Virus record (IMG/VR): IMGVR_UViG_3300042450_000799
Coordinates: 1-64,000 of that record
DNA: 64,000 nucleotides
From: a virus
Reading direction: 5' to 3' (one strand)
Shown: piece after piece, positions 2,525 to 45,200 of the stretch
How positions within the stretch are numbered: position 1 is the stretch's first letter
How the letters are laid out: the number at the start of each line of letters is the position of its first letter
Program-made: the position numbers and the translations under genes
Notes under the pieces: model-generated
What the model saw: the letters and a program-made list of their open reading frames with translations, nothing else
Database searches by the model: none
Told to the model about the DNA's origin: nothing

Positions 2525-2743
2525 ATGCCTACAGACATTACAATCAACAATATTACTGGATTAGCACCATTTGATATTTATTTATGTGATAACCCGATAA
2601 CAACATGTATCTATATTGACACAATCTCGTCAACACCATATATATTCGAAATCCCATCAATAATGTCAAGTCAAACTGATTTTAATTTAAAAATTGTTGA
2701 TGATAATAGTTGTACTATACTTGAAACCTTAAGTTTACCATGA
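2525..2743 (+). CDS. Small Cys-containing beta-rich protein, probable virion component; paralog of 4739..4969
   Basis: Start MPTDIT at 2525 after TATTTAT (2504-2510); shares ITG..P..(I/V)YxCD....C..I.TI...P...KI..D..C with 4739..4969. Confidence 0.7.
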   Translation: MPTDITINNITGLAPFDIYLCDNPITTCIYIDTISSTPYIFEIPSIMSSQTDFNLKIVDDNSCTILETLSLP

Positions 2744-4734
2744 AATGTAAAGCATATAGAATATATAATGGGGATCTTTCTGACCAAACACAAAGTTTCG
2801 ATAATTGCGATGGTTTAGCATGTGAGATTACTATCCCATCTGATGGTAATTACTTTATAACCGCAGATTCTGACACATTTGTCAATAACCCCCTATTAAC
2901 AATATTCGAATTTGAACCCATTCTCGCATATTCATTCAGTAGTTGTTGTGATGATCAAGTTTTTCATATTCTAGGTAACACTGGTATTTTTTCAGAATCC
3001 CCTGGAAAATCAATTTGTACCACAGAATTCATGAGCCCTTTGGATTGTGGTATATCTACATCCCCAACCAATGGATGTTATTCATTCATTAGTTCTACCA
3101 TACCCGAACTTGCTCTTGGGAGTCAAGTTTATTTAAACTATAATGGTTATTTTGAAGATGGTTGTGTCGAATGTCTTACTCTTTGTGTTCCTTGTTGTAG
3201 ATGTTACCAAGTTGAAGTTGAGGGTTTTGATGGATGTGTTTTAGGATATATTGATTGTGAAACAGGTCTTGAAGTTATTGAAACATTCATAGGTTCAAAT
3301 AATTATGTTTGTTCTCTTGGTGAACCATATGGTTCAGGTGTTTGTCTCAGCCCATTTACAATAACCGATTTAGGTTCATGCTCTTTAACAGAACAATGTA
3401 AGACTTGTTCTGAAACTTACTGTATAACTAATACGGGTAATCTTTATGACGATACATACAATTTAGACGCGGATTATGATGGGTATCAGTCTTGGATAAG
3501 TTCAACGGGTGACTATTACATTTATTATAATATAACTGATAAACAATGGTGTTTATCAAGTAGTTTAGGTGGAACATGTCTTTTATCAGGTAAGTCCCCA
3601 TGTTATTCAAAATGTCCTGACTTATGTGACGAATATTTCTTTGAAGGTACGTGTCCTACAACCACAACAACAACGGTTGCTTGCGTAACTTTTGATTTTG
3701 ACGCAATCTTTGATTGTATGACAGAAGTAACCCCTACACCAACACCCACACCAACTATCACACCAAGTATGACACCAACCCCAAGTTCAACAAGTTATTG
3801 TTCAATGGTTAGTGTTGATGCCACAATATCTGGTTACACTCCAACCCCAACACCAACCCCAACTATTACTCCAACATCCTCTCAAATAATAGTGAGACCT
3901 TGTAATGTATTAGGTGACGTTTCATTTACAACTCTTGAAGGTCACATTGGTTGTCCAAGTAGTAAACAATTTCAAGATTGTGTAACTGGTATGATGTATT
4001 ACACAACCGAACTAGTACCAACCCCTTCTGGTGATACATTGACCGAGTTTATGATTTTCAAAGCATATGTTGATGGAATTCTTAAATGTGTATCATTCGT
4101 TGGAATTAACGATGTTACCATTGGTGTTAATACAATTGATTTAGTAGAAGGCCCAACCGGATATTCAAACTTAGGTGAATGTGTTTTATGTGATGTTATA
4201 TCTAGCCCAACACCGACACCTACACCTACCATGACACCAACACCAAGTGGAATACCTTGTTTTTGTTATGAGATTATTTCTGAAACTGAAACAGCACGTG
4301 AATACGTTGATTGTAATGGGGTTTATTCAACAATATCAATCGATACACCTTTTACACCTTATTACGTTTGTTCATCAGCGCCATTAAACCACCCAGATAC
4401 AATAAACATGAGTATTACAAAACTTGAATTATGTTCTAATGGGATATGTCCTCCACTTGTTTGTAATTGTTATATCGTATCAAACGATTCAACCCAAGGC
4501 CCCGTGGGTCTTACTACCGCTAAAGACGTATCTACAGTAGCTGTAAATCTTGGTATTTATGTTACTTATTATGACTGTGATAATGTGGAACAAACTATTT
4601 ATATAAACCAAAAGGAAGAAACTCAACCATTCTGTTCATTAACAACACCATTTGTACATAGTCCTATTGACCCCACAATAATCCAAATTACCACAATTAC
4701 ATTACTTGGTGATTGTAATTCATGTTCACTGTGA
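2740..4734 (+). CDS. Cys-rich repeat protein with (PT)n and poly-Thr linkers, probable virion decoration/fibre protein
   Basis: 664 aa; four CxxY(x)n(Y/F)xxC modules; three TPTPTPT tracts; ATGA-coupled to the upstream gene. Confidence 0.7.
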   Translation: MKCKAYRIYNGDLSDQTQSFDNCDGLACEITIPSDGNYFITADSDTFVNNPLLTIFEFEPILAYSFSSCCDDQVFHILGNTGIFSESPGKSICTTEFMSPLDCGISTSPTNGCYSFISSTIPELALGSQVYLNYNGYFEDGCVECLTLCVPCCRCYQVEVEGFDGCVLGYIDCETGLEVIETFIGSNNYVCSLGEPYGSGVCLSPFTITDLGSCSLTEQCKTCSETYCITNTGNLYDDTYNLDADYDGYQSWISSTGDYYIYYNITDKQWCLSSSLGGTCLLSGKSPCYSKCPDLCDEYFFEGTCPTTTTTTVACVTFDFDAIFDCMTEVTPTPTPTPTITPSMTPTPSSTSYCSMVSVDATISGYTPTPTPTPTITPTSSQIIVRPCNVLGDVSFTTLEGHIGCPSSKQFQDCVTGMMYYTTELVPTPSGDTLTEFMIFKAYVDGILKCVSFVGINDVTIGVNTIDLVEGPTGYSNLGECVLCDVISSPTPTPTPTMTPTPSGIPCFCYEIISETETAREYVDCNGVYSTISIDTPFTPYYVCSSAPLNHPDTINMSITKLELCSNGICPPLVCNCYIVSNDSTQGPVGLTTAKDVSTVAVNLGIYVTYYDCDNVEQTIYINQKEETQPFCSLTTPFVHSPIDPTIIQITTITLLGDCNSCSL

Positions 4735-5591: not shown

Positions 5592-8156
5592 TTAAATATC
5601 GAATTTAATCAAAAACTGCTGTATGCCCTGTCTTAAAACGGGAGATTGCATTTTTGATATAATCATAAGATTCTTTTTGTCATCGTAAAGACCTATTTCA
5701 CTAACGTAAGATGCGTTACCTTTAGTCCATGTAGGATTTGATGGTACCTGGAATTCGGCTTGTCCTAAATTAATTTTATATTTCATCTCATAGATTGTTG
5801 CTTGGATATCAGTTTCTAATGATCCGTAGAAATAATATTCATCCCCAAAGTTTAAAGATTGTCCAGTTTCACCAACAGGTGTTAATGGGATATAATTATT
5901 TAAATTATAATTAGGAGCATCATCATACTCTTGTTGTGTAATAACAAACGTATTCCCCGTTAATCCATCTTGTGTAATATAACCATTAACCATTGTTGAA
6001 GCTAATTGACTTGTGAAATCAATTGACACCCAATCAGAGGAGTTAGGTCTCGCATTACCCACAACTTTTTGACAAAGAATCTCAAACTTATTAGCCAAGA
6101 ACCCTTGAGTTGCGTCACAGTATATCGGACATATCGATGTTGTGGTTGTTGTTACAGGATTATACGTTGTTTCCATTGTCGTAGTTAGAAAATGGCTAGT
6201 TGTTGTAGTGGTAGTCGGATAATGACTTGTTGTCGTCGTTGTAATTGGATAAAAAGATTGATTTAAACATCCAAACTCACCACCAAATCTAACCGCAACA
6301 TTCTGAGATGTAATCGGACTACAATCAATATTAGGCCCTTGAATTAAAGAGTAATAATTACAATGTAAAGAATCTGTAAATAAATCAGTATTGCTTAATC
6401 TATACGTTACATATAAAGATTCTGTTAACCCTGTTAATATACCAGTAACTGTCAAACTATCGTTCCCACAAGTATTAGGAGTTATTAATGATATTTTAGG
6501 AGATGGTAATGTCCAATTTCTATTTGATTTGTAAGACATTGCGGCTATGATTTCCTCATCATCAATAATAACCAACTTATCATCAGGAAATACTTTACCA
6601 ACTCTATTAGGAATCCCATCAATATTCGCATTTGTGTCCCATAAATGGTAGTATCTCATACCCGGGTTATTCATGTCAACATTCTTAGTTGATTGAAGGT
6701 GATTAACTTGAAAAAGATTTAAGTCTTCGAATCCTGGAGGGTCTACCCAAAATGTTTGTCCATTACAACAATCAGGATTTTTATGCCACATTAACCAAGG
6801 AATATGTACTTTAAAGTTTCTAGCTTCACCAGTTGTGTCAGCAGGGTTTGATGGGTCAAATGGTTCCAACGCAAATTTTTCACCATAAAAGAAATCTACA
6901 GTTTGATTTGTATAATGAATAATCCCAATCGCCTTTTGTTGTTCAGGTTTTACTGTAATTTTATCCCCAAAAGAGTTAAAATAATAAACAGAACTACTAT
7001 CAGTTTGCCCACTACTAGATGCGTATCCAAAGTATTCTTTTGCCCCTAAATAAGCGACAGAACCAAAATTAGTATAATCTTTACTGATTGATGATATTAA
7101 TCCAGCCGGATTTTCTGACCACGGAATATTCATATTCCATATCTTAACATCAAACTCGTCGGTATAACAAACAGATTCGAAATTAATAACATTATCATTC
7201 CAATGACGACTAGGTGTAATACTGTCATACATTGTTGTCATATTTGGTGGGTAAATAATTACTCTACCATAACAAACATTTGTTAAGTTTAAGAAGTTAG
7301 GTGTTGGTCTATCTAAAGTTATCACACCTAAACAAATATTAACAATCCTATATGTTAACATCGAATAACAACTACTCATATCTACCAAACAATCTGGCGG
7401 TGGAGGTAGTGGACATTCTCTACTCGGTGTAGGTGTTAAACAAGGTGTTTTAGAGGGCATTGGTGTTGGTGTTGGAGATTCACATGGAACTGAGTTAGTG
7501 GATGTTGGTGTTGGAGTTGGTGTTGTACCATATGACGCAGTAACTGAAGGTGTTACAGAAATAGTCGGGGTTGGACTTGGGGTTGGAATGTTTGAACAAT
7601 AACAATCTTCCATACCTTTACCATCATAATAAATGGTGATAATGTCTCCAATAGCCGGTTCTCTAACTGAATCAGGATTACTAGGATTACTTATAAGTGT
7701 AATACTATTTGTTCCACCCAAAGAATTCATCTGAACAACATAATTTGCATTAATTGCGTAAAAATTATTAGTTAACGCGCTCCAACTAATTGTACTGTTA
7801 GTTGTATCACCAGTGAAGAATCCTCTCATAACAGCTCTATTGTAAACAGGACTTATTTGAGAATCCATAAATGGAATTCCGTATGTGTTACCAACCACCC
7901 CATCAACATAGTAAGGATATTTTACGTTACTCTTATTTGATTGTGGAATCCCACTTGAATTTTGAGCATTAAAACTCGGTTCTAATATTACAGTATCAAA
8001 TTGATTATAACTTGTCGGTAAAGTATTATACGAAACCTCACTATCCCCGATTTGGAAATAGGAAATGTTAAAATTCCCTTGTGACAATTTTTCTCGTCCT
8101 ACGTCAGTCAATCTTGTATTAACTAACCCTGCAGTATTTTTTATTATAAACGCCAT
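5592..8156 (-). CDS. Virion structural protein (baseplate/fibre-attachment type) with PT- and Thr-rich inserts
   Basis: N-terminal LTDVGREKLSQG...ISYFQIGDSE and C-terminal SEIGLYD...ISK...PV motifs typical of fibre/baseplate-attachment domains; lies in the structural cluster. Confidence 0.65.
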   Translation of the reverse strand: MAFIIKNTAGLVNTRLTDVGREKLSQGNFNISYFQIGDSEVSYNTLPTSYNQFDTVILEPSFNAQNSSGIPQSNKSNVKYPYYVDGVVGNTYGIPFMDSQISPVYNRAVMRGFFTGDTTNSTISWSALTNNFYAINANYVVQMNSLGGTNSITLISNPSNPDSVREPAIGDIITIYYDGKGMEDCYCSNIPTPSPTPTISVTPSVTASYGTTPTPTPTSTNSVPCESPTPTPMPSKTPCLTPTPSRECPLPPPPDCLVDMSSCYSMLTYRIVNICLGVITLDRPTPNFLNLTNVCYGRVIIYPPNMTTMYDSITPSRHWNDNVINFESVCYTDEFDVKIWNMNIPWSENPAGLISSISKDYTNFGSVAYLGAKEYFGYASSSGQTDSSSVYYFNSFGDKITVKPEQQKAIGIIHYTNQTVDFFYGEKFALEPFDPSNPADTTGEARNFKVHIPWLMWHKNPDCCNGQTFWVDPPGFEDLNLFQVNHLQSTKNVDMNNPGMRYYHLWDTNANIDGIPNRVGKVFPDDKLVIIDDEEIIAAMSYKSNRNWTLPSPKISLITPNTCGNDSLTVTGILTGLTESLYVTYRLSNTDLFTDSLHCNYYSLIQGPNIDCSPITSQNVAVRFGGEFGCLNQSFYPITTTTTSHYPTTTTTTSHFLTTTMETTYNPVTTTTTSICPIYCDATQGFLANKFEILCQKVVGNARPNSSDWVSIDFTSQLASTMVNGYITQDGLTGNTFVITQQEYDDAPNYNLNNYIPLTPVGETGQSLNFGDEYYFYGSLETDIQATIYEMKYKINLGQAEFQVPSNPTWTKGNASYVSEIGLYDDKKNLMIISKMQSPVLRQGIQQFLIKFDI

Positions 8157-8182
8157 TGACTATAAATATGTATATTTCTTTT

Positions 8183-9613
8183 TTATGTTGCTATTACCGT
8201 ACAACAATTACAACCCGATAATTTTAAATTTGTTATTGAGTATTTTTCATCACTTGTTCCGATATAGCAATTAATTGATTCGTTTTTTGTTACGGAAGTT
8301 ATTGTTGTTAACACTAAAATATCCGTATTAATTATTGTAAATTGATCCCATATTTCACCATTTGAAGTAATATAAACCGTATTTGACTGACACCCAGGGA
8401 CTATACTTGAGGTTTCGGAACTACCAGTTACCTCTCCACTAGGTTTAAAACTTCCCCCATTTAATACTAAGTCACTATTACTTTCAGAAATAGACGATTC
8501 AGAATTTGGTGAAGATTTCGATGTGTTTAAATGGTTTAAATCAAACGTTAATAAAACACCATCAGGTAATGGTGGGAATATCTTAATAGTTGTTTCGTAT
8601 TGTTTTGTTACACTATTATTAGATCTTTCAATAATTTTTGATGTCGTATTTAACCCAACATTATACGTTGTAGGTTTAGACGGTGAATTAATAATAACAC
8701 TTAAACTATTAGTGATTTCATTACTATCCATGGTAATAACACGATAAGTACCAGAACACAAATTATTAAAAATTGGAATATTTTTATAAGTTAATCCTGA
8801 GTTAATAGAATAAGTATATGGAGGTGACCCGCCATTTGCATTAATTGTAATACCACCATCACACCCACAGATTGTTTGATTTTTGGTCACATTCATTGTT
8901 AATGGTGTTATTACTTCATCAACTTTAAATTTACCCAATAATGGGGATTGTCCTGGAAAAGACGTACAATTACCTTCATTAACCATTGCACTACCAGACG
9001 CCCCGATAATTAACCATCCACCATAAACAGGAGGATATGTTGGATTCAAATTTGATATTACATATAATGTTGGTGTTGCTGCCGATACCAACCACTGTGA
9101 TTGGGATGAGTCCCAAATTATTGATTGTAGACTATCATCAGAAACCCAAGTTGGTTTCCCATCATACATTCCATTTGGATTAAAATGTATTTGTTCAACA
9201 ACTATGTTATCACCTATAAGTATTTCTGTGGTCATACACATCTCATATTCATTCGGATATGGTGAAGTGGTACTCGTACTTGTGGTAGTTGTGGTTGGAG
9301 TTATCCCAGTTAAAACACAAACAGTATTTGCAGTAAAATCACCATAATAATCTGTAACTGTCGACCCATATGATCCGGCACTCAAACCATAGATAATTGG
9401 CCCAACGCCCCCGTTTGACCAAGTAACAACATAAGGTGGAGTACCCCCCGTTATAATTAAAGAAGCAATTCCATCTGTCGAATCCGGTTGTGTTGGATGA
9501 GAGACATTACAATCAACACCCATTTGAAATAATGTTATAACATTACATTCATTAATCCCTGTTGGTATACAAGACGTTTCTCCAGTAATTTGATATGGGG
9601 GTTTATTACTCAT
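8183..9613 (-). CDS. SprB-repeat adhesin-like virion protein
   Basis: DGxxxxxITGGTPPYxxxWS...GLSAGxYxxTVTD and GGSPPYTYS repeats; TPTTTTTSTSTTSP linker. Confidence 0.75.
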   Translation of the reverse strand: MSNKPPYQITGETSCIPTGINECNVITLFQMGVDCNVSHPTQPDSTDGIASLIITGGTPPYVVTWSNGGVGPIIYGLSAGSYGSTVTDYYGDFTANTVCVLTGITPTTTTTSTSTTSPYPNEYEMCMTTEILIGDNIVVEQIHFNPNGMYDGKPTWVSDDSLQSIIWDSSQSQWLVSAATPTLYVISNLNPTYPPVYGGWLIIGASGSAMVNEGNCTSFPGQSPLLGKFKVDEVITPLTMNVTKNQTICGCDGGITINANGGSPPYTYSINSGLTYKNIPIFNNLCSGTYRVITMDSNEITNSLSVIINSPSKPTTYNVGLNTTSKIIERSNNSVTKQYETTIKIFPPLPDGVLLTFDLNHLNTSKSSPNSESSISESNSDLVLNGGSFKPSGEVTGSSETSSIVPGCQSNTVYITSNGEIWDQFTIINTDILVLTTITSVTKNESINCYIGTSDEKYSITNLKLSGCNCCTVIAT

Positions 9614-9628
9614 TTATGATAAATACAT

Positions 9629-10609
9629 TTACAATTGATTTTTTACAATCCTTTTCATTATCTCAACGTATTTAATTGTTGAACTATTCGTATCTACAAA
9701 ATCAAAATAATTAATATTCTCCCTTAATTTATCTAAAGGATTAACATTAATAAATTCCCCTTTATAAAACTTAGTTTCTTTTAAATTGTGAGTTACTCCC
9801 GCCATATGTAAGATGGGGTGTTTTTCATAACTGGTAATATTATCAGTCGCCCACGAAAACCCCAATTCATCCGTTATCTTTGTCTCAATCCCAAAGTCCC
9901 AAAGGTTCCATAATAAAGACCACATCTCAGCAGTCCAAAACTGTATTTCACCAGGACTTATCGGAAATCTCTTTTGATAACTCATCATTTGATCATATAG
10001 AGGTGTACAATCTTCATAAATTTTATTCCACATAAATGAATCAGTATTTTTTATAATATATTGACCACCACCTGAGTTTTCTTGATTACATTTAACACAG
10101 TCAACTGATACCCCAACAACATCTACCATCTCTTGAATTAATTGTCCTTTATTAGAAGTGGGATGATGTTTTTCATATCGTTCACAACAATCATTAATAT
10201 AATTATAACCAATGTACCCAATTGTGTCTGACAAATAAGTTACATCGTCAGATAACAACGTATCAAAGTCCGGTAATTTTCTAAAGATAATATCAGCATC
10301 ATGTAAGAAAAAACATTTTCCAAACTCCGGAAATTGTTCTAACCATTTATGTATTAGATATGGTTTAATATTTGGGATATAATGCTTTTGACGTCTATCA
10401 TCCAAATAATGATGGACATTTATCCCCATCGATTTAAGCTCCATCGATTCTTTGGTTGGTTCAGTTTTCCCATTAACTATTGAAAATATAACGTGGATCT
10501 GACCAGGGTCGATACCCATTTCTATAAAATTATGTGAATACACTTTAACTTGCCAATGAAAATATGGAACATCGGGTTGTGCGGTCACAAATACTAAATC
10601 ATTCTTCAT
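9629..10609 (-). CDS. GT-A glycosyltransferase resembling plant peptidyl-Ser/Hyp O-glycosyltransferases (GT96 SGT1 / GT95 HPAT)
   Basis: YFHWQ, YIPNIKP..I..WL, HDADII (DxD), GYIGY, GGGQY, WTAEMW, PILH motifs in the order recalled for that family. Confidence 0.7.
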   Translation of the reverse strand: MKNDLVFVTAQPDVPYFHWQVKVYSHNFIEMGIDPGQIHVIFSIVNGKTEPTKESMELKSMGINVHHYLDDRRQKHYIPNIKPYLIHKWLEQFPEFGKCFFLHDADIIFRKLPDFDTLLSDDVTYLSDTIGYIGYNYINDCCERYEKHHPTSNKGQLIQEMVDVVGVSVDCVKCNQENSGGGQYIIKNTDSFMWNKIYEDCTPLYDQMMSYQKRFPISPGEIQFWTAEMWSLLWNLWDFGIETKITDELGFSWATDNITSYEKHPILHMAGVTHNLKETKFYKGEFINVNPLDKLRENINYFDFVDTNSSTIKYVEIMKRIVKNQL

Positions 10610-10690
10610 AATACCGTTTGACTTAAATATACAAAATATTTATTCTTAGTGAATGATGATGTTAAGACTTAATCACAAAACGATTGGAAA

Positions 10691-13600
10691 TTAAGTTTGT
10701 GTTGGGGTTGGTGTTGGGGTTGGGGTTGGTGTTGGTAGTAAACAACCTAGTTCAACCATATCACCATCAACTTCTTTAGGGGCAGAATTAACATAAACAT
10801 TATTATTAGTTGGGATATATACCCCAAATGATGTACTAGATAAGGCAATTGTTGACACAACCGTATTTGTTATTGTATTGATAATAAGAACACTTTCCGG
10901 ATCAAATTGATTAACATAAAGGTATCCATTTGATGGGTTATATGTTGAGTTAACTGGAGCTCCAGTTGCCGGTATTGTGATTGTCACATCAGTATTAATA
11001 TCGATTACCGTAATAGTATTATCACCAGTATTCGTAACATAAATGTAAAGAGGGGTTTCAATAATTGATACTGTATTTAGAAACCCAACCGGTATTATGG
11101 AAACTACCGTATTTGTGGTTGTATCAATTTTACTAACATTATTATCTAATTCATTCGCAACATAAACATAGTTGTTAATTGATGAATAAAGAATTGTACT
11201 AGGACTATTACCAACAGGTATTGACAACACAACAGTATCTGTAACTGGATCAACAACATCAACTACGTCAAAATTTGTAATCGATACGTAAACATACCCA
11301 TTAATTGGATCATATGCTAAACCATTAGATCCAATATAAGCTGTTCCGGTTAACGTAACTGATGTTAAGACACTATTAGTTGTTGTATCAATAACATTTA
11401 AAAATACGCTAAGATTATCTGTAACATATAACTTATTAACCCCATTTACATATAGAGTTCCCACCCATAAACTACCAGTACTAATTGTTGATATAACCAT
11501 ATTCGTTGATGTATCAATAACGCTAACTGTATCATCACCACTATTAGGAACGTAAATACATCCATTATCAGAATTATATTGGATAGGACAATTATTACCA
11601 AGACCTACGTTAATTGTTGTTATAACGGTATTTGTTATAGTATCGATTACACTGACAGAACTACTATCCGTATTATTAACATAAAGATACCCATTTGTTG
11701 ATACGTAAACCGCAGATTGAGAAACTATCCCAACACCTATCGTATCTAATATTGTAACATCATAACATGGTAAGGGGGTGGGGGTTGGTGTTGGGGTTGG
11801 TTCACATGTTTGACACGCAATATCATAAGAAATTTTTAAAGATATTTTAACATCACCATCAATTAAAGAAATGTCTGAATTACAATCTGTATTAATTACG
11901 ATCATATTATTTAAATAATCGATTAGTACTCCCCCAATACCACCATATGAAATCAAAATCTCTTTTACAACATCATAAAATAAACTATCTAAAGGAAATT
12001 CGGTTAAAGTAGACCCAGTGTAGAAAGATTGAATTTGAGTATCTCCATTAACAGTTACTTCCGCGTAAAATATTGTTTGATTTAATATACAATTGGTATC
12101 ACCACTAGTTAAATCATAAAAACCTTCGGTTAACATTTGTTGAGGGCCTTTCCTAATAGTTTGACCTGTATTCATAAAATCACCATCACAAATATTATAT
12201 GTCTGATATGATGATAATAGATTAAAACCATTAATAATTATATCTCTAGTTTGAACACACCCATTTGAATCCGTAACTGTTAAGGTGTAAGTCCCCGCAG
12301 ATAAAGTATTAACATTTAATCCCGTTTGACCATTAACATTTAAACTCCAATCTAAAATAAACGGTGGTTCTCCATTTGTAATAAATGCACTTATAGTCCC
12401 ATTACTTCCGTTAGTTGAGTCAGTTCCAGCTAAAACAAAATCAAGAGTACTCGAATTATCAATAGTAAACGGTAATATTTGAACACATCCATTTGAATCC
12501 GTAACTGTTGCGGTATAATTACCCGAAGATAAGTTAGTGAAAGTATACGTTAAATCACTTGTAAAAACAAAATGACCATCAATTTCAAACTTAAATGGCC
12601 CAACCCCACCTTCTGTTATATTCAAAGTAACTGAACCATCGTTTGAATCACATGTTGTACCAATGGTATCGACCGATAATTCAAATAACGTTATATTATC
12701 AATTGTATATTCCTGAGTAAACACACAAGGCCCATTATCCGAAATTGTTAAAGTATAATCTCCAGATGATAACCCGTTAAACGTCCATGTTACAAAACTC
12801 CCCGAAACTGTTGTAGAGTTACTTAGGGAATCTATCAATGTATATGTATAGGGAGGTGATCCCCCAAAAATTACAACACCAATTGATCCTGAAATATTAT
12901 TACACACTGAATTTACAACATTAACTGAGGTTACAGAAAGACCCCCCGGTGTTAATAGTGTAACTGAGGCTATAAAATTACATAACCCCGCGTCAGTTAC
13001 TTGAACTGAGAATATACCAGCTGGCACTCCTGTGAAAGTATGTGTCGAAGAAAAACTAACCGCAACAGACCCATTGGAACCTGAATAATAATATGGTGAG
13101 GTTCCACCTGTTATTGTTATTGTTACTTCTCCATCTGATGAGAAACAAGATGGTGTAACAACAGTGAATGCCCCTAAACCAACATTAGGTACTGTCGTTA
13201 CAGTTACCCCACTACTTTGTACACATCCAGAACCATCAGTTACCGCAATTGTGTATGGGCCTGCCGTTAATCCCGTTATTGATTGTGTAGTTTGACCACC
13301 TGGTGACCATAAATAAGTATAAGGTGGTGTTCCCGTTAACCCTGTTATATGTATTGATCCCGAATTAACCGCACAACCCGCATCATTTACAACATATAAC
13401 CCAATTTCAAGTGGAAGTGAGTCTTTGATGATACACGTTTCAGATTTACCCGTACACCCACCTCCATCATCAGCAACCACATAATATGTACCCGCAGATA
13501 AACCTCCAAAACTATAAGACGAAACAATACTAACTCCTGATGTAATATAACCTGAAGTCATTTCATATAAACCAAAACTACCTGTTCCATATAAATTAGT

Positions 13601-13939
13601 TGTTGTGGCGGTTAAAGAACCATTGTCTAATCCGCATACGGTATTCGTTTGACTCGTAATACTAACACATGTTCCTGTTGATATATAGACATTAACTGGT
13701 AAGATAGTATTCGTTGGTGAGCAACTATCAATAATATTAAATGTATATGTTCCTCCTGATAACCCAGTGTTACTATAATTTGTAACTCCTGAACCTAATG
13801 GGATTGTTGTTGTATAAGGACTAATCCATTGTATTGTATAATCAGGAGCGATCCCTAAAATATCAAGACTAAACGCCCCTGATGAATCATTCGAACAGTC
13901 TCCTGTTAGACTAATAGCATATGTTAAAGTACATGACAT
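10691..13939 (-). CDS. SprB-repeat plus YVTN beta-propeller protein (receptor-binding/fibre-like), PT linkers
   Basis: Multiple GGxxPYxY...L.aG.Y...VTD..GC repeats; C-terminal (Y/L)YVxN...VSVIDT.TN.V...I.VG blades; PTPTPTPTP tracts. Confidence 0.8.
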   Translation of the reverse strand: MSCTLTYAISLTGDCSNDSSGAFSLDILGIAPDYTIQWISPYTTTIPLGSGVTNYSNTGLSGGTYTFNIIDSCSPTNTILPVNVYISTGTCVSITSQTNTVCGLDNGSLTATTTNLYGTGSFGLYEMTSGYITSGVSIVSSYSFGGLSAGTYYVVADDGGGCTGKSETCIIKDSLPLEIGLYVVNDAGCAVNSGSIHITGLTGTPPYTYLWSPGGQTTQSITGLTAGPYTIAVTDGSGCVQSSGVTVTTVPNVGLGAFTVVTPSCFSSDGEVTITITGGTSPYYYSGSNGSVAVSFSSTHTFTGVPAGIFSVQVTDAGLCNFIASVTLLTPGGLSVTSVNVVNSVCNNISGSIGVVIFGGSPPYTYTLIDSLSNSTTVSGSFVTWTFNGLSSGDYTLTISDNGPCVFTQEYTIDNITLFELSVDTIGTTCDSNDGSVTLNITEGGVGPFKFEIDGHFVFTSDLTYTFTNLSSGNYTATVTDSNGCVQILPFTIDNSSTLDFVLAGTDSTNGSNGTISAFITNGEPPFILDWSLNVNGQTGLNVNTLSAGTYTLTVTDSNGCVQTRDIIINGFNLLSSYQTYNICDGDFMNTGQTIRKGPQQMLTEGFYDLTSGDTNCILNQTIFYAEVTVNGDTQIQSFYTGSTLTEFPLDSLFYDVVKEILISYGGIGGVLIDYLNNMIVINTDCNSDISLIDGDVKISLKISYDIACQTCEPTPTPTPTPLPCYDVTILDTIGVGIVSQSAVYVSTNGYLYVNNTDSSSVSVIDTITNTVITTINVGLGNNCPIQYNSDNGCIYVPNSGDDTVSVIDTSTNMVISTISTGSLWVGTLYVNGVNKLYVTDNLSVFLNVIDTTTNSVLTSVTLTGTAYIGSNGLAYDPINGYVYVSITNFDVVDVVDPVTDTVVLSIPVGNSPSTILYSSINNYVYVANELDNNVSKIDTTTNTVVSIIPVGFLNTVSIIETPLYIYVTNTGDNTITVIDINTDVTITIPATGAPVNSTYNPSNGYLYVNQFDPESVLIINTITNTVVSTIALSSTSFGVYIPTNNNVYVNSAPKEVDGDMVELGCLLPTPTPTPTPTPTQT

Positions 13940-17871: not shown

Positions 17872-18810
17872 TTATAGTATTAATTCATTTATTGTTATTG
17901 AACATTTAGTTCTTTTTTTAATGTTTTCTTCCCAAGGAATAAACTCCAAATTTTTAATTCCCCCAATAATTTCAGGTGATATATTATTTTTAAATCCTTC
18001 TATAATTGAATATTTATGGTCTAAATGAAACGCCCCGTCAACACCAGAATTATTTCTTTTTCCATAATTAGGTAATTGATTGATAGATTGTTGTCTTGTG
18101 AACCTCATAACATCATTTTTATATTTTTTATAATCATCTTTAATATTTAAGTATTTGTCATATGATATCCCTCTAAATCTTTTTACAGTACCAACCGAGT
18201 TTCCCTCACTCATATTTCTACGATAATCGGTTAATTGTAAATATTTGTCAATAAAAGATTTTGTTAATCCTAACTGACAACCAATTTCTTCAGTATTTTT
18301 ATAATCATCCAAATACAACTTTTTAATTAAACTAATTTGTTCTTCAGATAAGTTAATTTTAACACCATTACTACGACCTTTCCTTAATATATTTTTTTCT
18401 TTTAAAATTCTTTTAATTGGTGTAATACTGACATTAAAATCTATTGAAATTTTTTTTGCCGATAACCCTTCGTTATATTTTTTAATTATTGTATCAATAT
18501 CGTCAACACTAAATTCTTTTTTAGTTTTATCTCTATCTTCAATCCAAACATTTTTTTCAATCAAAATAGTTTTAACATTTTTGCGACCAATATTTATCAT
18601 CATACTCACCTCACTATAACTAACCCCATTTTTATATAATTTAACTACCTCGCTAACAACCTCATCACTATATATTTTTTTCATGTGAGTTGGAGAACAG
18701 TTATTACACTTCCAATTTTCTCGGATAGAACATTTTAACCTACTTTTAGTAGTGTAAGATTGTATTCCCCCACAATTAAAACAAGTTTTAATATATTCTT
18801 TATTACTCAT
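17872..18810 (-). mobile_element. Free-standing HNH homing endonuclease (Zn ribbon + repeated helix-turn-helix-like units + C-terminal HNH)
   Basis: CFNC..CNNC; three I..(L/K)Y..G.S...I....(I/V)..IL repeats; HLDHKYS...NLEFIPWEENIKK; Lys-rich composition unlike flanking structural genes. Confidence 0.8.
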
Positions 18811-18827
18811 AACAATAAATATCCATT

Positions 18828-20015
18828 TTATATTTTTATAACATTGAAAAACTTAAACCCATACTTTTCAAGGTCACCAACATTATCAACTTCCCCTAAT
18901 CTCTCAAGTCTCTCTAATGCCGAGTTTTTACCTCTCTCAATGAAGACGTTGGATTGTATTTCTGCTTCATCAATTACATTTAATAATACTTCATTTTTTG
19001 TTATTGCCGAACAAACCATCATGTCAGGGGTCATTCCAGAAGAATAAACCGTAAATACAGTGGTTCCATCGTTATAATCATAGTAGTTAATGTCATTAAT
19101 TGTATAGGCGGTGTATAGGTTATCGATAGATGGCCCAAAAAATGTCCCAACATTACCCGAGGTACCTGTCACCTGAATACCTATTTTATATTTCCCACCA
19201 AATAAACCAGGATTATATTTACTACCGTATTGAGTTAAGTCATTCATCGTTGAATTTGTATACCCCGTAATTAGGAATGGAACTGTGGTGTAATTATAAC
19301 TTGACTGATCATATACATCACAATTAGAATCCCCCGTAAATAAATAATCATACATAAATGATGTTCCTGTCCAATTCCCCCCCGCAGGTGTGAAATACGC
19401 AGTTCCATTAGGGTTAGTGGCAATAATATTCGTAAATGGTACCGTAACATCTTTTTTAACCACATTATAACCCCACGGACTCATCCCAGACATTGTAATA
19501 GTATAGTTACCATTAGAGGCATAAGTGTGAGCATAATAATTAGGAGCTGTATAAGGAACTAATTCTAATGGTGAACCATCTCCCCAATCAATTTGGTAAG
19601 TCGCAAATGATAAATACTTTTTAAATTCAGACTCTGAAGTATTATAAAAATAATAGGTATAAGGTGAAAATGTTGTTGCGGAAAATAAAAAATTAGTCAT
19701 TGTTTCTTTTTGTATGACCATTCCATCAAACACGGAATAATATCCAATATCAATTGTGGTTTCAGTTAATAATATAGGTATGGTTAATCCTGTTAATAAA
19801 GAATCCCCACTTGTACCACCACTCACAATTTGTGACATTCCCGAATACACCCGAGTATATCCAGTGTATTGACTAGTTGTGGTAGTTGTCGTTATATCAC
19901 AACAAGGATCCCCACTTAAATTAAATTGTGATGTACCAGCATCGTAAGATGCAAGAAATAAATCTCCATTAATAACTTCCGGGGAAATTCGTATACTATA
20001 ATATCTATCGTCCAT
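18828..20015 (-). CDS. PKD-domain virion protein
   Basis: IDWGDG...HTY...GNYTIT PKD signature; ITTTTTTS tract. Confidence 0.7.
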   Translation of the reverse strand: MDDRYYSIRISPEVINGDLFLASYDAGTSQFNLSGDPCCDITTTTTTSQYTGYTRVYSGMSQIVSGGTSGDSLLTGLTIPILLTETTIDIGYYSVFDGMVIQKETMTNFLFSATTFSPYTYYFYNTSESEFKKYLSFATYQIDWGDGSPLELVPYTAPNYYAHTYASNGNYTITMSGMSPWGYNVVKKDVTVPFTNIIATNPNGTAYFTPAGGNWTGTSFMYDYLFTGDSNCDVYDQSSYNYTTVPFLITGYTNSTMNDLTQYGSKYNPGLFGGKYKIGIQVTGTSGNVGTFFGPSIDNLYTAYTINDINYYDYNDGTTVFTVYSSGMTPDMMVCSAITKNEVLLNVIDEAEIQSNVFIERGKNSALERLERLGEVDNVGDLEKYGFKFFNVIKI

Positions 20016-29605: not shown

Positions 29606-29611
29606 ATATTA

Positions 29612-39230: not shown

Positions 39231-42200
39231 TTATGGTGTTGTCGTGGTTGTTGTTGTTGGAACCGCATTCCAAATATCAATAGATTTTTTTACTTTATCC
39301 TCAATGGATGTTAATTGTGTTGACCCCATTCCAGTATAAACATTGTCTGGAAGAATATTGGCACCCATATTTAATATCCAAAATTTAGCAATATCTTTTT
39401 CCGATGAACTAGCAACATTAAACATTCTATTATTCCATCTTTCTAAAAGGAGTTTAATCGTATTAGCTAAATCATCAAATACCGCATAAGGTAACATTGT
39501 TGTTTCAGATTTTAAACAAAAAAACTGTTTATTTGAATTGAACTGTGAGGATGACCCTTCACCCCAAAAATTAGATAAATCAATACCAGCAAAGTTATAT
39601 TCATAAGCTTCTAACCCTGTGGATGTCCCTGATTCTAAATATAAAGCCGCAAATACTGCGTATTTTAGTTTTCCATCGTCTGGAATACCACCAGATGCCA
39701 TTAAATTTTTTATCATCTTTTTAGCCTCAGTAAATGTTACCTTACGATTTGTTGGTGTTATCGCCACATAACCCGAGTATTTTGAATTTGGTACACAAGT
39801 TTGAGGCTCCACTAATTCTTTACCCCCATTAGCATTTGACACAACTTTATCTTTTTGGGAAATCACATTTCCTTTAGCATCTTTAGTTTTTTTAGTTTCT
39901 TTATTTTTCTTAATAATTGTTTGTAGTAGGTTAGTTCTAAGAGACTGTAAGTAAGCATCAACTTTAGGTAAGGCAACAACTGGTTGTCTAACACCTGTTA
40001 TATATGTATCAAAATTCCCCGGAGTGATATAATGATCAACACTTAATATCATATAAGGCCCACTAAACATTGGCACATTTCTCAAATTAAAATACATCGT
40101 TGGTTGCATCATCGCATTTCCCATCATATTTATCTGACAACTATAACTTCTATTTTTATAAAGATTATATAACGAAGTATTTTGAGTACTCTCTTTTCTC
40201 GCACCTCCTGAGTTCGCAAGTTGATTCAACACTTCAAGACCTTCAGCGGTTGCTAACCCAGCACTTTGGTCAACTTGGAAACTTTTAAATATTTGTTGAT
40301 TTTGAGGCCCAATATCAACATTAAACCCGACCACTTTATTTGATAACGCCCAATCTTTTTTACCGACCTGATTTTCCACTAATGGATTATCACTAGCTCT
40401 ACGTAAATCAAACGCATCATTTCTATAACGATAATCAACATTGTTTTTCATTTCTAATTGTCCACTTGGTTTTCCAGCATATAAACAAACTAATTTTGAT
40501 GTCGAATCTCTATAATCAACATCTAAAAATGTACCAAATAATGTATTAGCAAATTCCGCAGTACCTTCTATTTTTGGTGTTGGATTTTTCACAGCGTCTT
40601 GTACGTTATAAAAATTAACATAAGATGGTATATTCATCACAACAAAATGGTTATCTGTTAAAATACTTTGAGCTACCGTTAACATTGACATTTTAGCATT
40701 TGTATTCATTAACCTGTCTTTTAATTGGTAAACATCCACTAAAATTTTATCACCAATATCACGACTTGCCCTATCTAATAGTAACACATCTTCAAATAAT
40801 GTTTTAGTTTTAAAATCATACCCAGAAACCCACTTATCATTTAAAGCCTTGAATGTTTCCCATAATTCAACTTTAGTTTGATCCCCTTCTAAATCAGAAT
40901 CAACTTGACCTTCAGCTCCAATTGTTGTTGTTGGTAACGAGGCTTGTAATTTAGGCATTAAACTATCAATAATCTTATTTTGGAATGAATCGATATCTAA
41001 AAGATAATTAGTCATAGCCTGATAGAAAGCCCCTTTACCTTCATTACTTCCCGGGTTTGGTACTAGTGGGTACTCATCTTGAGGGACAAATACCGTATTT
41101 ACAATATATTGTGGTTGTGTTGGGGTAGTCGCCAATGAACCAAAAACCGCAATAATCGCCTCATCAATTAATGATTGCGTAATACCAGTCGTTGGTGGCC
41201 CACCTAATGGTAACCCTTCATACAATATAATACCCGCACTATTCGATAAGTAAGCAGTTTTTTGAGAACCAACTTTCCTAACCGTAACAGTATCCCCACT
41301 TAAAAGAGATGTTGTGGAAATCACCTGACTTGGTGATGTTATCGGAGCGTCGGGTGGAAGAATTGGGTTACTTTGGAATTGGTTTAATTTTTGGGTTGCA
41401 TATATTTTAATAACTGTTGCGAATAATTTAATATTGTCCACAGTAAAGGCGACATTCAAATCAACAAAGAAATCTGTAATATAAGAACCATTGTCACCAT
41501 AAACTAATTCAGGTATTTCTGAGAATCCAACATATGTATATAAACTTGCCCATTCATTAGGATAGTTTATTTTAGATGTAGCAAATGAAACCCCACCACC
41601 ATTAGTTGGTACAGCATTAGGTGTCATAACCGTATAATCCTCCCATGTGTAAGGATCGACTAATTGTAATGTTGAAAACGTGTAGAATAAACGTTTATCA
41701 TATAACGATGGGTTCCCATATTTAAAAACAACATCATAATTTAAAAATTGTCTTAAAATATTAGTCACATTAGTTGTTTGATAATCTTGGATTTCACCAA
41801 TAACGATTGACCCCGTATCACCTGTTATTTTTGGAACTTTTAATAAACTTCTAAATAACATTTGAAAGTTTTTAAAAGTTTGTTCAGTTTCTGTCCCCGA
41901 ATCTCCAGTTGACCCTGGTGTATAATCATACATAGATCTTGAGAAATTTAAAAATTCCGTTTCAAACCCATCTAATACTTCTTTTTCAAAAACAGATAAT
42001 ACCTCACTCATTTTTGTATAATCACTTGCCACCCCATTAATCGAGAAATTTTCCTGTTGACTTTGTCCTGAAAAAATATGTTTCATATACTCAAATGGTG
42101 ATGGTTTCGTAACCTTTGAATTATCATAGTACCCATAGTTTGGTGCCGACCAAAATAATCTAACAGACCCATCATACATCGCTTGATTAGAATTAACCTC

Positions 42201-45200
42201 AAACTCTAATTTACCGTCCTTAAAACATTCATTTTTTGTTTGATTTAATAGTGATCCTTGGGATGGCATCAAATAAGTGTATTTTGTGTCAGGTGTATCA
42301 ACACTAACCGACCAAGGTATAACCCTTAAATCTCTTAATGGTATCGCTGGGTCAAATCCCTCAGCAAAATCAATAATCGCACTATCGACATAATTAATTG
42401 AAACCCCAGAAGTTATCCCCGATTGTATATCACTATCAGTATATCCCGAGAAAACTTCATATCCTTGACAGAATACGTTAAAGTCATTTATCAATTTAGG
42501 GTAAAACCCTGTATTAATTAATGTTGAAACCTCAGCCCCAATAGTCGTATCTTTTTGTAACACAATATCAATTGGTGCTCCATTAATTATCAAACCGTAA
42601 TTTCTAGAATTGGAACTTGTTACTGGGTCAAAATTAGTCGTATAACTAAACCCCGACCAAGATGTATCTAAAATATCAACATTTTTCTCAACATATGTTT
42701 TATACCTATGCCAAATAGAACCAAATTTCAAAACCCAAGCATATGGCATTTTATGAACAGCCCCAAACTTTTTAAGTGCTGCAAAAACATAATCTAAGTC
42801 GGTCTCGGTTGTACCATCAGATGTTTTAAATTTTTCTCTAAGAGTTGTTAATGGTAAACTATTAATGAAAAGATATGATGATGCGATAAACGGATTTTCA
42901 TCACTGTTTCTAAAATTCTTAATCCCTTGTTGAATTGAATTAATAAAATACGGTGTGTTAAATATTGATGTTGTTTGGGTATCTGTAACACCACCACTAT
43001 AATTAAAATATCTAACATTACCTTCAGTAACCAATTGAGATTTAAAATCCCTACCTTGATACCAAGTTTTTAAATCAGTTGTACTATCCACGTTTGGTGT
43101 TTGCCCCAATAAATAAACAAAATTAGTAATAGGTCGATTACTGTTCGGTATCGTTGGGTTATCAAAACTTGTAATCAATTTAAGATCCGAGTTATATTTT
43201 AAAACTTTTGTAGTATTAAAAGAACTGTTAGCATCCAAAATAGTAGTCCCATTTGCTAAGTATGTCTTATCCCAATCTTTATTAGTAAAGGGAAATAAAT
43301 CAGCCAAATCAAATTTATTTGATGTTGTTGACCCCATAATATATTCTGACATGGCAACCTCATTTGGTAATGAAATTAACGGTTTTGATTCTGAACTGTT
43401 TAAAATATCTGAACTAATAATTTCAAAACCACCAGTTGTAATTATATTCTTAACATACGTAGTGTTAAAAATCCCTCTAATATAATTTTGCCAACTTTCA
43501 CCCACACCACTATTTGAAAACTGTCTTAGAATCGTTGTAAAGTTAGTTGAATTAAACCCATATTCCCTTAATTTTTGAATTATAAAAGGATTATCATTTG
43601 TTAAACTTTTAACAATGTTGTTATTTTCAGAATCCGCAATTAAATTAATAATTTTATCAGCATCCGATACCGAAACATTACTTCTAGAAAGTCTTGAGTA
43701 ATGTGATATTAACATAACCCTTTCATAAATTTCATAAAAGTATTTAACTTCTTCTTTATTCCCATATACCCAATTACCAATTGGGAATTCAATCGCATCT
43801 AAAGAAACTCTTTGAGGTTGGGTTGATTCATTAGTATTAGCCGTAGGATCTGAAGGTGGTAAAGTTCGTTCAGTAAATCCTTTTATAAATTCCTCAACAA
43901 ACTCAACTTCAGGCCAAACATCAAACAAATATCCTTTAGTTCTACTAGATATTTTTGGATCTCCAGGATAAGCAATTTCATATTTTTCTCGACCATTATC
44001 CCCCGAAGTTTCAACGATTAATTGAGGCCATGGATAGACGGGCTCAGTAGAATTTTCACCTGACGAAAGATTATCTGAAGACGCACCAGCGATTTGTTTA
44101 TCAAAAATAACATCTTTTCTATATTTATTGTCTCTTTGTTCCCACGCACTAGTGTGAACATCATCCATTAATCTTAAAAAAGCTTCAGCATTTGCAAAAA
44201 GAACTGCAAGGACATTTCTAATGTTTGGTACAAACCCAATACCACTAGTTTTACTTTGTAATAAAGTAGATAAGGCATTTGTTAAATCAATTTCTATTTG
44301 TTGTGATTTTTCTGTTAATGTTTTAGATAAAGCATCAATTTTATCTGAAAATCTTTTGTCCCCTTCGAACGCATAATAATAAACAATTTTCCTTTCTTTA
44401 CCATCACGGGTAATCGATTTTCCCGAATTAAACGTATTATTCCTATCTAACTCAACCTGTAAGTCAGCCTCAGAGATCAACGGTGTTTTCCCATTGTTTC
44501 GTTCATTAAGAGTTTTCGTTAAATCAATATCGTCAGACGCCACTTCAATTGAAAAATCTTTATAACTAATATCAGAGACTATTTGACAAGGAATTGGTTT
44601 ATTATCAATAGTATAACTACCCCCAGCACCTTTATGTCCATTAGGTCCAAAAGTGTCATTGTCATTTAATAATTTATTCTTTTCTGATATAATGTTATTT
44701 AATTTTGATATTGCTTCATTTTGTAACGTCAGTGTATTAATTTCGGGTTTAAAGGTGTAAATTTGAGTATTACTCCCTTTCAATACGAAATAATTTTTTT
44801 TATCCATGTACGTATTAAACCAAGATGTTTTATAAGCATCAAGAACCTCTTTTCGATATGATTCCAATATCCCTCGATAAGTATCAATATCCGTTAATGG
44901 GTCTAAATTTTGTTTACTAAATGTATCTAAAACATTCTTAATAAAATTTTCAATTCTATTCTGCATTTGGACGAGAGTAATCTCAGGAAAATCATCAGGT
45001 ATTAGACCTTTTGTTTTATATTCACTATACATCTCTCTAACCTTCTGATACCCCCTTTCATAAACAGTATCCTCAACATTTGAGAATTGACTAGCATTAC
45101 CACTCGTTGTTTGTATTTTAACTCTCGATTTATACATGTGAGGAGTCGCCAATAAATATCCCATTGACACCTCACGTAAAACACTATACTTATATGTAAT

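Follow-up and report, generated by a model that had tools for sequence, protein, structure and literature searches.

To our knowledge, glycosylation of phage virions has so far been documented only for a few mycobacteriophages. In these phages the glycans were reported at the C-termini of the capsid and tail-tube subunits (Freeman et al. 2023, as cited in PMC12619734), and the transferase involved is encoded by the phage. This is the case in the system considered here as well, the gene lying in or next to structural genes, and the reported glycan sites match the two poly-Thr-tailed proteins of the phages phiFL1A, iLp84, 4995_1, VPE25 and RQ1. The present system differs from that of the mycobacteriophages in its predicted acceptor, a conspicuous tag of poly-Thr or Pro-Thr that the genes encode, and in its hosts (Bacillota, and probably also bacteria of the Bacteroidota and of fresh water). 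Since no Mycobacterium phage was found among the 77 records matched by tblastn with the enzyme of 9629-10609, the enzyme family also appears to be different from the mycobacteriophage one.

A virus-encoded cytoplasmic GT-A enzyme which glycosylates the major capsid protein of its own virus is A64R of chlorovirus PBCV-1 (2p6w). It matches the modelled product of 9629-10609 with Z 11.2, more weakly than the GT8 group does, and its host is eukaryotic. Chlorovirus glycans are N-linked. Among bacteria, a counterpart of such mucin-like tags is found in the serine-rich repeat adhesins decorated by GlyE of S. pneumoniae PsrP and its relatives. By sequence, the nearest named family is HPAT (PF23452, which we take to be CAZy GT95), with YFxWQ, YxPxxxP, DxD, WxxxMW, a His and xKGxY aligned over ~250 columns. 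The HPAT enzymes act on Pro/Ser/Thr-rich low-complexity protein segments and the phage enzyme, a member of the phrog_4417 family, is predicted to do the same; it differs from HPAT in having no visible N-terminal membrane anchor.

The window is a stretch of 64,000 nucleotides from a large uncultured phage (positions 1 to 64,000 of IMG/VR record IMGVR_UViG_3300042450_000799). The glycosyltransferase gene occupies 9629..10609 on the minus strand as a single ORF of 326 aa with an ATG start, assigned to phrog_4417 and predicted to have a GT8-like retaining GT-A fold, and is located within a minus-strand block reaching the baseplate wedge genes. The sequence-only reading had listed an ordered series of motifs in this ORF, and all of them were present in the minus-strand translation: YFHWQ (residues 16-20), YIPNIKPYLIHKWL (77-90), HDADII (103-108), GYIGY (131-135), GGGQY (180-184), WTAEMW (225-230), GIETKITDEL (240-249), PILH (265-268) and FYK (281-283). 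The motifs are beyond chance, since 59 relatives of 30-81% identity all share the same residue at 11 positions (W19, Y77, D104, D106, Y132, G181, Q223, M229, F251, H268 and G271). In 114 relatives (~30-55% identity) the DxD (D104/D106) and H268 never vary, and some twenty more positions show little or no variation. A DxD and a late His are the usual metal ligands in GT-A enzymes of the GT8 clan. Neither a signal peptide nor a membrane segment was visible by eye at the N-terminus of the translation. In AT-rich DNA of this kind, a scan of 8000-14200 for promoters and terminators yielded nothing informative. The contig makes up only 26% of the estimated genome, so that the capsid gene, which it lacks, and any other transferases are out of sight. 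A DUF2827 protein encoded on the same contig outside the window (71748-72947) was considered as a possible second transferase; its model was poor (pLDDT 49), and none of five large relatives has a member of the DUF2827 family.

The protein matched phrog_4417, a family of unknown function, with E 2.4e-70 over residues 7-321 (profile positions 3-291 of 293), and the family comprises 823 clusters at 50% identity. No Pfam match was obtained at E up to 10, and the sequence search of the PDB returned nothing. The top fold matches of the AF2 model (pLDDT 97) were glycogenin (Z 14.8), LgtC (14.2), the Skp1 alpha-galactosyltransferase (6mw8, 14.1), UGGT (14.1) and GlyE (13.6), and Foldseek agreed with a GT8-like fold (E about 5e-7, TM-scores about 0.4-0.5). 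The fold is common over 209-242 residues to these GT8-clan enzymes (in UGGT, to the catalytic domain), which carry the DxD plus a late His like the phage protein; their solved structures share only 7-11% sequence identity with it, and none of them was found by the family sequence profile. Judged by its model, the product of 9629-10609 is predicted with high confidence to fold as a GT8-like retaining GT-A glycosyltransferase. At the sequence level it falls outside GT8 and Pfam Glyco_transf_8, as there is no Pfam match and the family profile finds no solved GT8 chain. The protein had been taken earlier for a protein-glycosylating enzyme, and the best structural matches, retaining GT-A enzymes of the GT8 clan acting mostly on proteins or protein-linked glycans, agree with this, with the LOS enzyme LgtC tied. 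On the model, the shared fold does not fix the acceptor, because LgtC scores level with the protein-directed enzymes.

The likeness to plant HPAT and SGT1, which the sequence-only reading had drawn from the motifs, held in part: remote homology to Pfam HPAT was recovered (hhalign 92-93%, E about 1e-7, motifs one to one), and membership in HPAT was not. Aligned with bacterial proteins which pass PF23452 (27-101 bits), the family profile gave hhalign probabilities of 93.3% (E 2.7e-7), 74.7% and 91.9% (E 7e-7 over 256 columns), while two unrelated controls gave 0.2-0.4%. The PF23452 model matched neither 9629-10609 nor five gene-carrying phage records nor the 114 relatives at E 0.01 or better; in the set of 59 relatives two matched, at E 0.09. 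Among the named ESM-Atlas neighbours 18 of 30 carried HPAT, which is a lead only. By profile comparison, the protein is remotely homologous to the HPAT family, whose model it does not pass. The HPAT link is visible only by profile comparison with the HPAT-positive bacterial genes. As for the residue to be modified, no 2OG-Fe(II) oxygenase or prolyl hydroxylase was found among the contig proteins scanned, and PF13640 gave no match in five large relatives, of which three are 93-100% complete, the control having matched in 2 of 14 genomes. Since the prolyl-4-hydroxylase considered earlier was thus found neither in the contig nor in near-complete relatives, Thr or Ser is a more likely acceptor than hydroxyproline. 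Hydroxyproline is unlikely to be the acceptor, although a host hydroxylase might supply it.

Thr tracts were defined as runs of at least 7 P/T/S residues with at least 4 Thr. The non-nested ORFs of the contig contain 12 such runs, compared with a mean of 0.29 and a maximum of 2 in 200 per-protein shuffles, far more than expected by chance. The gene was earlier said to lie between two SprB-repeat genes, and PF13573 was indeed matched in both neighbours. The upstream one (10691..13939, minus strand, 1082 aa, PF13573 E 8e-20) is fibre-like, with a weak beta-propeller match and a match to phrog_26672, 'virion structural protein', at E 2.7e-5; its (PT)n tracts are at aa 714-722 and at the C-terminus, aa 1069-1080. 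The downstream one (8183..9613, minus strand, 476 aa, PF13573 E 1e-8) starts 15 bp past the glycosyltransferase stop and has the tract TPTTTTTSTSTTSP at aa 105-118. In the same minus-strand block, the 854-aa protein of 5592..8156 (minus strand) carries PT tracts at aa 191-220 and poly-Thr at about aa 640-690, and its sole family match is a weak one to phrog_15511 across the tract region. The 664-aa protein of 2740..4734 (plus strand), for which no Pfam or PHROG match was found, has five PT or poly-Thr tracts between aa 306 and 497. These four proteins are candidate acceptors. Further tracts are TTTTTTS at aa 42-48 of a 395-aa protein in the structural block (18828..20015, minus strand, no match in Pfam or PHROG), the C-terminal tail PTTTTTTTP, aa 2211-2219, of a 2219-aa protein (39231..45890, minus strand), and STTTTTSTSPTPTPTP at aa 289-304 of the 1121-aa tail sheath (56102..59467, minus strand, phrog_23 E 3e-57 over aa 819-1119), where it sits in a long N-terminal extension. 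The earlier count of at least seven tract-bearing genes is borne out by these seven credible ORFs with Pro/Thr or poly-Thr runs. An eighth, ORF 62472-62987, lies antisense to a long ORF of helicase type and is probably spurious. No tract was present in the tail tube (54497-54985), the tracts of the window being instead on fibre-like proteins and the sheath.

The co-occurrence of the gene with Thr tracts, noted earlier at this one locus, proved to be strong and local, and it recurred in phage lineages that are unrelated to one another. By tblastn, 77 records in 2.3 Gb of cultured phages matched the gene. Enterococcus, Staphylococcus, Lactobacillus, Lactococcus and Clostridium are among the hosts of the carriers. 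At the small end of the carriers are temperate phages of enterococci and lactobacilli with 38 kb, at the large end freshwater jumbo phages of about 300 kb. In each of the 10 cultured carriers examined, the gene comes either after the gene for the major capsid or major tail protein or among small tract-bearing ORFs, and each has poly-Thr runs, be it on one of these two proteins or on small ORFs next to the gene. Poly-Thr tails are present on the capsid and tail proteins of phiFL1A, iLp84, 4995_1, VPE25 and RQ1. In the complete genome of phiFL1A, a temperate phage with integrase and CI repressor, Thr runs occur in two proteins only, capsid gp45 and tail gp50, in both at the C-terminus, and gp51 is the sole candidate transferase. 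In the closest cultured relative, Chryseobacterium phage MA9V-3, long Thr/Ser runs are found in the 428-aa protein directly upstream of the gene. The tails come and go with the gene: they were present in 3 of 3 capsid or tail proteins from gene-carrying phages and in 0 of 9 homologues from gene-less phages (Fisher's exact test, p about 0.005 by hand calculation), where gene-less status was judged on whole phage records and the positive control matched in 5 of 5 records. The major tail protein of phiEf11 runs 6-8 kDa heavy on SDS-PAGE, and its authors suspected a modification (PMC5221750). Since this phage lacks both the gene and a Thr tail, the observation was set aside as irrelevant.

The same linkage was observed in prophages and uncultured loci. 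In Bacillota prophage loci the Thr run starts 35-106 bp upstream of the gene in 19 of 21 cases, and the density of tracts is 18 per 100 kb up to 1 kb from the gene but only about 1-2.5 per 100 kb at distances of 3-6 kb. For the reverse test, 80 random IMG/VR loci were picked solely by the presence of eight ACN codons; the gene was found in 4 of these poly-Thr loci, each time at most 350 bp from the run, while ~0.02 would be expected from the rate of the gene in cultured phages, a different collection. In the window's own lineage the linkage is seen in 78 of 80 loci, all of which carry the gene, so that this set has no internal gene-less control. Quite apart from this, secreted proteins of Bacteroidota often contain (Pro-Thr)n linkers.

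The O-glycosylation of virion proteins put forward by the sequence-only reading is thus supported by the fold and by the co-occurrence with Thr tracts, from which we infer the glycosylation itself. The enzyme encoded at 9629-10609 most likely O-glycosylates Thr-rich tags on the phage's own virion proteins, with the tracts as its probable acceptors. It would be a soluble, metal-dependent transferase made together with the late structural proteins, and would take its sugar from the host nucleotide-sugar pool. The hydroxyls of Thr, perhaps also of Ser, in the poly-Thr and (Pro-Thr)n tracts would receive the sugar in the cytoplasm, either ahead of virion assembly or in its course. Candidate acceptors in the window are both of the SprB-repeat, fibre-like neighbours, the extension of the sheath and several other large proteins; in the small Gram-positive phages this role would fall to the tails at the C-termini of the major capsid protein and the major tail protein. 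The coat may serve in shielding, in hydration or stiffening of linkers, or in adhesion.

It is unlikely that the enzyme modifies a dedicated acceptor of pure poly-Thr only, such as a small decoration protein or the tail of a capsid or tail-tube protein, and leaves the (Pro-Thr)n linkers of the window's fibres unmodified. The nearly pure Thr/Ser tracts of the Gram-positive phages, C-terminal or in small ORFs, would fit such an arrangement, as would the alternating Pro-Thr of many window tracts and the upstream neighbour, for which just 19 of the 79 close relatives show a tract. However, 52 of the 79 show one in the downstream neighbour of the enzyme gene, pure Thr runs are present in the window too (TTTTTTS, PTTTTTTTP and TPTTTTTSTSTTSP), and in MA9V-3 the Thr/Ser runs lie inside the 428-aa protein directly upstream.

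The gain and loss of the Thr tails together with the gene, as well as their adjacency of 35-106 bp, would be left unexplained if the target were a polymer of the host envelope (teichoic acid, LPS/LOS or capsule) and the tracts unrelated linkers. We regard such a target, which could bring a superinfection block or a receptor change as in serotype-converting phages, as quite improbable. The rank of LgtC among the top fold matches (Z 14.2) and the temperate nature of some carriers, e.g. phiFL1A, speak for it, but the gene is situated inside late structural operons, right after capsid or tail genes and outside the lysogeny modules. Moreover, the carriers include Herelleviridae and this large myovirus, which have no lysogeny genes in the regions examined, and the N-terminus of the protein shows by eye no signal peptide or membrane segment.

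The protein might also be a catalytically dead glycosyltransferase remnant with a structural or chaperone-like role. This is very improbable in view of the DxD, His268 and about twenty positions that are invariant or nearly so in the 114 relatives, and of the size of the family (823 clusters at 50% identity). Modification of phage DNA by T-even style glucosylation of hydroxymethylated bases is hardly credible, for although phage glycosyltransferases are classically DNA-modifying (PMC12619734), no DNA glycosyltransferase was among the top fold matches, no hydroxymethylase-type gene was among the proteins scanned, and peptides are indicated by the position in structural operons, the linkage with Thr tracts and the RiPP-like surroundings of the cellular relatives.

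Having preferred the O-glycosylation of the phage's own Thr-rich tags, we also lean, with somewhat less assurance, towards a broader view: phrog_4417 may be the enzyme of a widespread, undescribed 'glyco-tag' system, in which a single HPAT-related transferase would O-glycosylate in the cytoplasm the tracts of capsid, tail-tube, sheath and fibre proteins, and whose cellular cousins would act on exported ribosomal peptides of Bacteroidota. No description of the phrog_4417 family was found in the literature on poly-threonine tags, phage O-glycosylation and HPAT in phages, nor any experimental study of one of its members. If the family acts as its context suggests, sugar coats would be common among phages and predictable from sequence, by a transferase gene plus a Thr tag, and could affect antibody recognition, stability and adsorption; some of the carriers are under study for therapeutic use or are relevant to dairy fermentation. 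The enzyme and tag would also offer a minimal pair for the cytoplasmic O-glycosylation of chosen bacterial proteins, and the family a bacterial and viral branch of HPAT for structural work.

The chromosomal relatives in Bacteroidota adjoin C39-peptidase ABC exporters in 21 of 44 loci, LanC-like proteins in 20 and HlyD in 13, and these bacteriocin- or RiPP-like clusters point again to peptide acceptors. Since no Thr run was found near the gene in 38 of the 44 loci, the family is not tied to poly-Thr in every setting. An HPAT-type gene lies beside a separate gene of the phrog_4417 family in one Myxococcales MAG. Fused members of the family carry extra glycosyltransferase domains, including a Skp1-type GlcNAc transferase and a protein O-fucosyltransferase.

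The translation of the minus strand at 9629-10609 gave a 326-aa ORF with an ATG start, and all motifs that the sequence-only reading had listed for it were present in the same order. The gene is separated from its neighbours by 81 bp and 15 bp, all on the same strand; both neighbours match the SprB repeat family (PF13573) and both carry Pro/Thr tracts, as had been described. When a tract was defined as a run of at least 7 P/T/S residues including at least 4 Thr, 7 credible ORFs in the window qualified, in agreement with the earlier claim of at least seven, and the contig in total contained 12 such runs versus 0.29 expected from per-protein shuffles.

Over its full length the enzyme belongs to phrog_4417, a large family of unassigned function; clustering at 90% and 50% identity leaves 1450 and 823 clusters, respectively. 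Pfam gave zero matches to it, even at E 10, and no relative among the solved structures was found by sequence and profile searches. The AlphaFold model, built from an alignment of 59 sequences, has a mean pLDDT of 97. In an all-against-representatives search with this model the top matches were retaining GT-A enzymes of the GT8 clan with 209-242 aligned residues, namely glycogenin (Z 14.8), LgtC (14.2), the Skp1 alpha-galactosyltransferase 6mw8 and the UGGT catalytic domain (both 14.1), WbbM (13.9), GlyE (13.6), which is part of the pneumococcal serine-rich-repeat adhesin pathway, and LARGE1 (13.3); Foldseek concurred. In GT8-type enzymes a DxD and a His of this kind coordinate the nucleotide sugar's metal. 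D104 and D106 (the DxD in HDADII) and H268 (in PILH) are invariant across 114 relatives and, by analogy with GT8, are the predicted metal ligands. Since the N-terminus is without a hydrophobic segment, the enzyme should be cytoplasmic.

The sequence-only reading had pointed to the plant enzymes SGT1 (GT96) and HPAT; the likeness to the hydroxyproline O-arabinosyltransferases (HPAT, GT95) held as remote homology in profile comparison but not as membership. The Pfam HPAT model (PF23452) was unmatched by the window protein, by five other phage records and by 114 relatives; a weak match (E 0.09) was seen in 2 of 59 relatives, and HPAT-bearing clusters were among the nearest named neighbours in the ESM Atlas, which is a lead and not a test. 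Four bacterial genes passing the HPAT model at 27, 35, 88 and 101 bits were used for comparison. The family profile aligned by hhalign with bacterial HPAT genes at 93.3% (E 2.7e-7) and 74.7% probability, and with the four-sequence HPAT alignment at 91.9% (E 7e-7) over about 250 columns, placing YFxWQ, YxPxxxP, DxD, WxxxMW, the His and xKGxY one to one. Controls with two unrelated proteins, including a different glycosyltransferase domain, reached 0.2-0.4%. Because these matches are high and the controls low, yet the HPAT model is unmatched, phrog_4417 is best described, on the basis of four bacterial sequences, as a remote HPAT relative and not a member by the Pfam criterion. A search for prolyl hydroxylase found none on the contig and none in five large relatives, which argues for Thr/Ser more than hydroxyproline as the acceptor. 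In a Myxococcales MAG (L295:2-2139) the immediate upstream neighbour of a phrog_4417-type gene is a same-strand gene that passes Pfam HPAT, and in an actinobacterial Acidimicrobiaceae MAG (L221/L296) the two are about 4 kb apart; therefore the two related families co-occur as separate genes. Next after a strong bacterial HPAT-family member, the ORF L298:2369-3616 has a GxGxxG dinucleotide-binding motif at its start and, by eye, looks similar to UDP-galactopyranose mutase; such an enzyme would fit a furanose sugar donor.

The gene was detected by tblastn in 77 cultured-phage records, with hosts including Lactobacillus, Enterococcus, Staphylococcus, Lactococcus, Clostridium and Chryseobacterium. 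Ten of these were examined for gene position and Thr tracts, and the expected co-occurrence was borne out in all ten. The gene comes right after the major tail protein gp50 in phiFL1A, where the last 27 residues of gp50 form a Thr/Ser tail, and right after a tail protein with a poly-Thr tail in phiCTP1 and in RQ1. In Staphylococcus phage RQ1 (L210:4232-4934) a 104-aa ORF with six T7-T8 repeats sits just ahead of the transferase gene and overlaps, in a different frame, the 3' end of the major tail gene; it might extend the tail protein by frameshifting. The gene directly follows the major capsid gene in 4995_1, whose capsid protein has a poly-Thr tail, and in VPE25 and Planchet, whose capsid proteins are without a tract and whose major tail proteins end in T10 and TTTSTT, respectively. 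It also follows the capsid gene in iLp84 and R3.3, with tails on both capsid and tail proteins, and in iLp84 a small ORF also contains five T7-T13 repeats. In Bacchae (Herelleviridae) it lies among three small ORFs, each with Thr/Ser runs, and in Chryseobacterium phage MA9V-3, the closest cultured relative (36% identity), it follows a 428-aa protein with a 23-residue run. In the complete phiFL1A genome Thr runs occur in only two proteins, gp45 (capsid) and gp50 (tail), in each case at the C-terminus. Since gp51 is the sole candidate transferase there, the enzyme itself must, judging from gene content, start the glycan in phages of this type, with a sugar nucleotide supplied by the host.

Gain and loss of the tails follow the gene. 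The phiFL1A tail-protein homologues of Javan47, Javan505, phiJL-1, ATCC8014 and phiLpTT2 have no run of at least 4 Thr, and the gene is absent from these whole records; in the gene-carrying phages such a run was present in 2/2 homologues. The 4995_1 capsid protein has its four nearest homologues in gene-less phages, and these proteins retain the conserved end of the fold but have no Thr tail. The search used for calling absence recovered the gene in 5/5 positive controls. Altogether the tail was found in 3/3 cases with the gene versus 0/9 without it (Fisher p about 0.005, calculated by hand). In the reverse direction, IMG/VR was scanned for eight consecutive ACN codons, which gave 80 loci totalling 640 kb; four contained the gene, each time less than 350 bp from the Thr run, against an expectation of 0.02 derived from the rate in a different collection, the cultured phages (77 records in 2.3 Gb). 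With a base rate twentyfold higher the probability of four carriers is still about 0.001. In bacterial genomes the Thr run starts 35-106 bp upstream of the gene in 19 of 21 Bacillota (prophage) loci, and over all 80 genome loci tract-bearing positions thin out from 18 per 100 kb at distances up to 1 kb to about 1-2.5 per 100 kb at 3-6 kb. Among close relatives of the window phage, all of them carrying the gene, a tract-bearing ORF lies at most 10 kb from the gene in 78/80, and the downstream neighbour is tract-bearing in 52/79.

We regard it as likely that the enzyme, made with the late structural proteins, transfers a host sugar onto the Thr tracts of virion proteins. The host nucleotide sugar would be bound through the DxD/His residues and a metal, and the sugar would be passed to Thr hydroxyls in disordered Thr or Pro-Thr tracts; should the GT8-like fold be indicative, the anomeric configuration would be retained. 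What we observe is the fold, the motifs and the linkage to Thr tracts, whereas acceptor, sugar, chain length and benefit are inferred. It is rather doubtful that pure poly-Thr tags are the only substrates and that the Pro-Thr sequences of this window are plain linkers. Modification of the host envelope, with which the LgtC-like folds and the temperate carriers would agree, is quite improbable, as it leaves unexplained both the operon position and the gain and loss of Thr tails. That the enzyme modifies DNA or is catalytically dead is unlikely.

In most chromosomal homologues of Chitinophaga, Pedobacter, Mucilaginibacter and Sphingobacterium, which are fused to a second glycosyltransferase domain, no Thr run was seen nearby. 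Chromosomal loci contain a C39-peptidase ABC exporter (21/44), a LanC-like protein directly downstream (20/44) and HlyD (13/44); this gene content matches that of a bacteriocin/RiPP export cluster and is a further hint at a peptide acceptor. L231:2403-8827, L256:2707-8136 and about 20 further loci (L230-L288), combining the fused enzyme with the exporter, HlyD and the LanC-like protein, are candidates for clusters that produce glycosylated ribosomal peptides. Other fusions, with a Skp1-type GlcNAc transferase (PF11397), protein O-fucosyltransferase, GT2, GT6, sialyltransferase or discoidin domains, were also found, a range consistent with multi-step glycan assembly. An NAD-dependent epimerase/dehydratase (PF01370, up to 192 bits), possibly a nucleotide-sugar-modifying enzyme, occurs in three of five large relatives (G308, G309 and G311, the records behind loci L033, L036 and L088); the window's contig showed none.

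The nearest described counterpart is the virion glycosylation of mycobacteriophages, reported at capsid and tail-tube C-termini and cited in PMC12619734. Our tblastn search (77 cultured-phage records) did not find the present enzyme in Mycobacterium phages. Literature searches turned up no account of phrog_4417 or of phage glycosylation at poly-Thr tags.

The source record is 75.9 kb long, of which the window is the first 64 kb, and CheckV completeness is 26%, i.e. it is a fragment. Family matches to a tail sheath (56102-59467, minus strand), a tail tube (54497-54985), a baseplate hub (53344-54102) and wedge subunits (27767-30067) identify the phage as a myovirus, and replication genes are also on the record. 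Because relatives whose enzymes are 70-73% identical have contigs of 274-318 kb rated 93-100% complete, it is probably a jumbo phage with a genome in about this range. Sheath families match only the last 300 or so residues of the 1121-aa sheath protein, whose 800-residue N-terminal extension holds a Thr/Pro-Thr tract. A 312-aa ORF amid the structural block (17872-18810, minus strand) has PHROG matches of the helix-turn-helix and HNH-endonuclease types and may encode a homing endonuclease. Beyond the window, contig 71748-72947 (L090:11748-12947) encodes a 399-aa DUF2827 protein (PF10933, E 1e-99), to which metagenomes contribute hundreds of close relatives. Its predicted model is poor (pLDDT 49), and this family was not found in the five large relatives. 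Contig 73015-75819 (L090:13015-15819) encodes a 934-aa protein combining many leucine-rich repeats with a C-terminal carbohydrate-binding module 5/12, an unusual combination in a phage protein.
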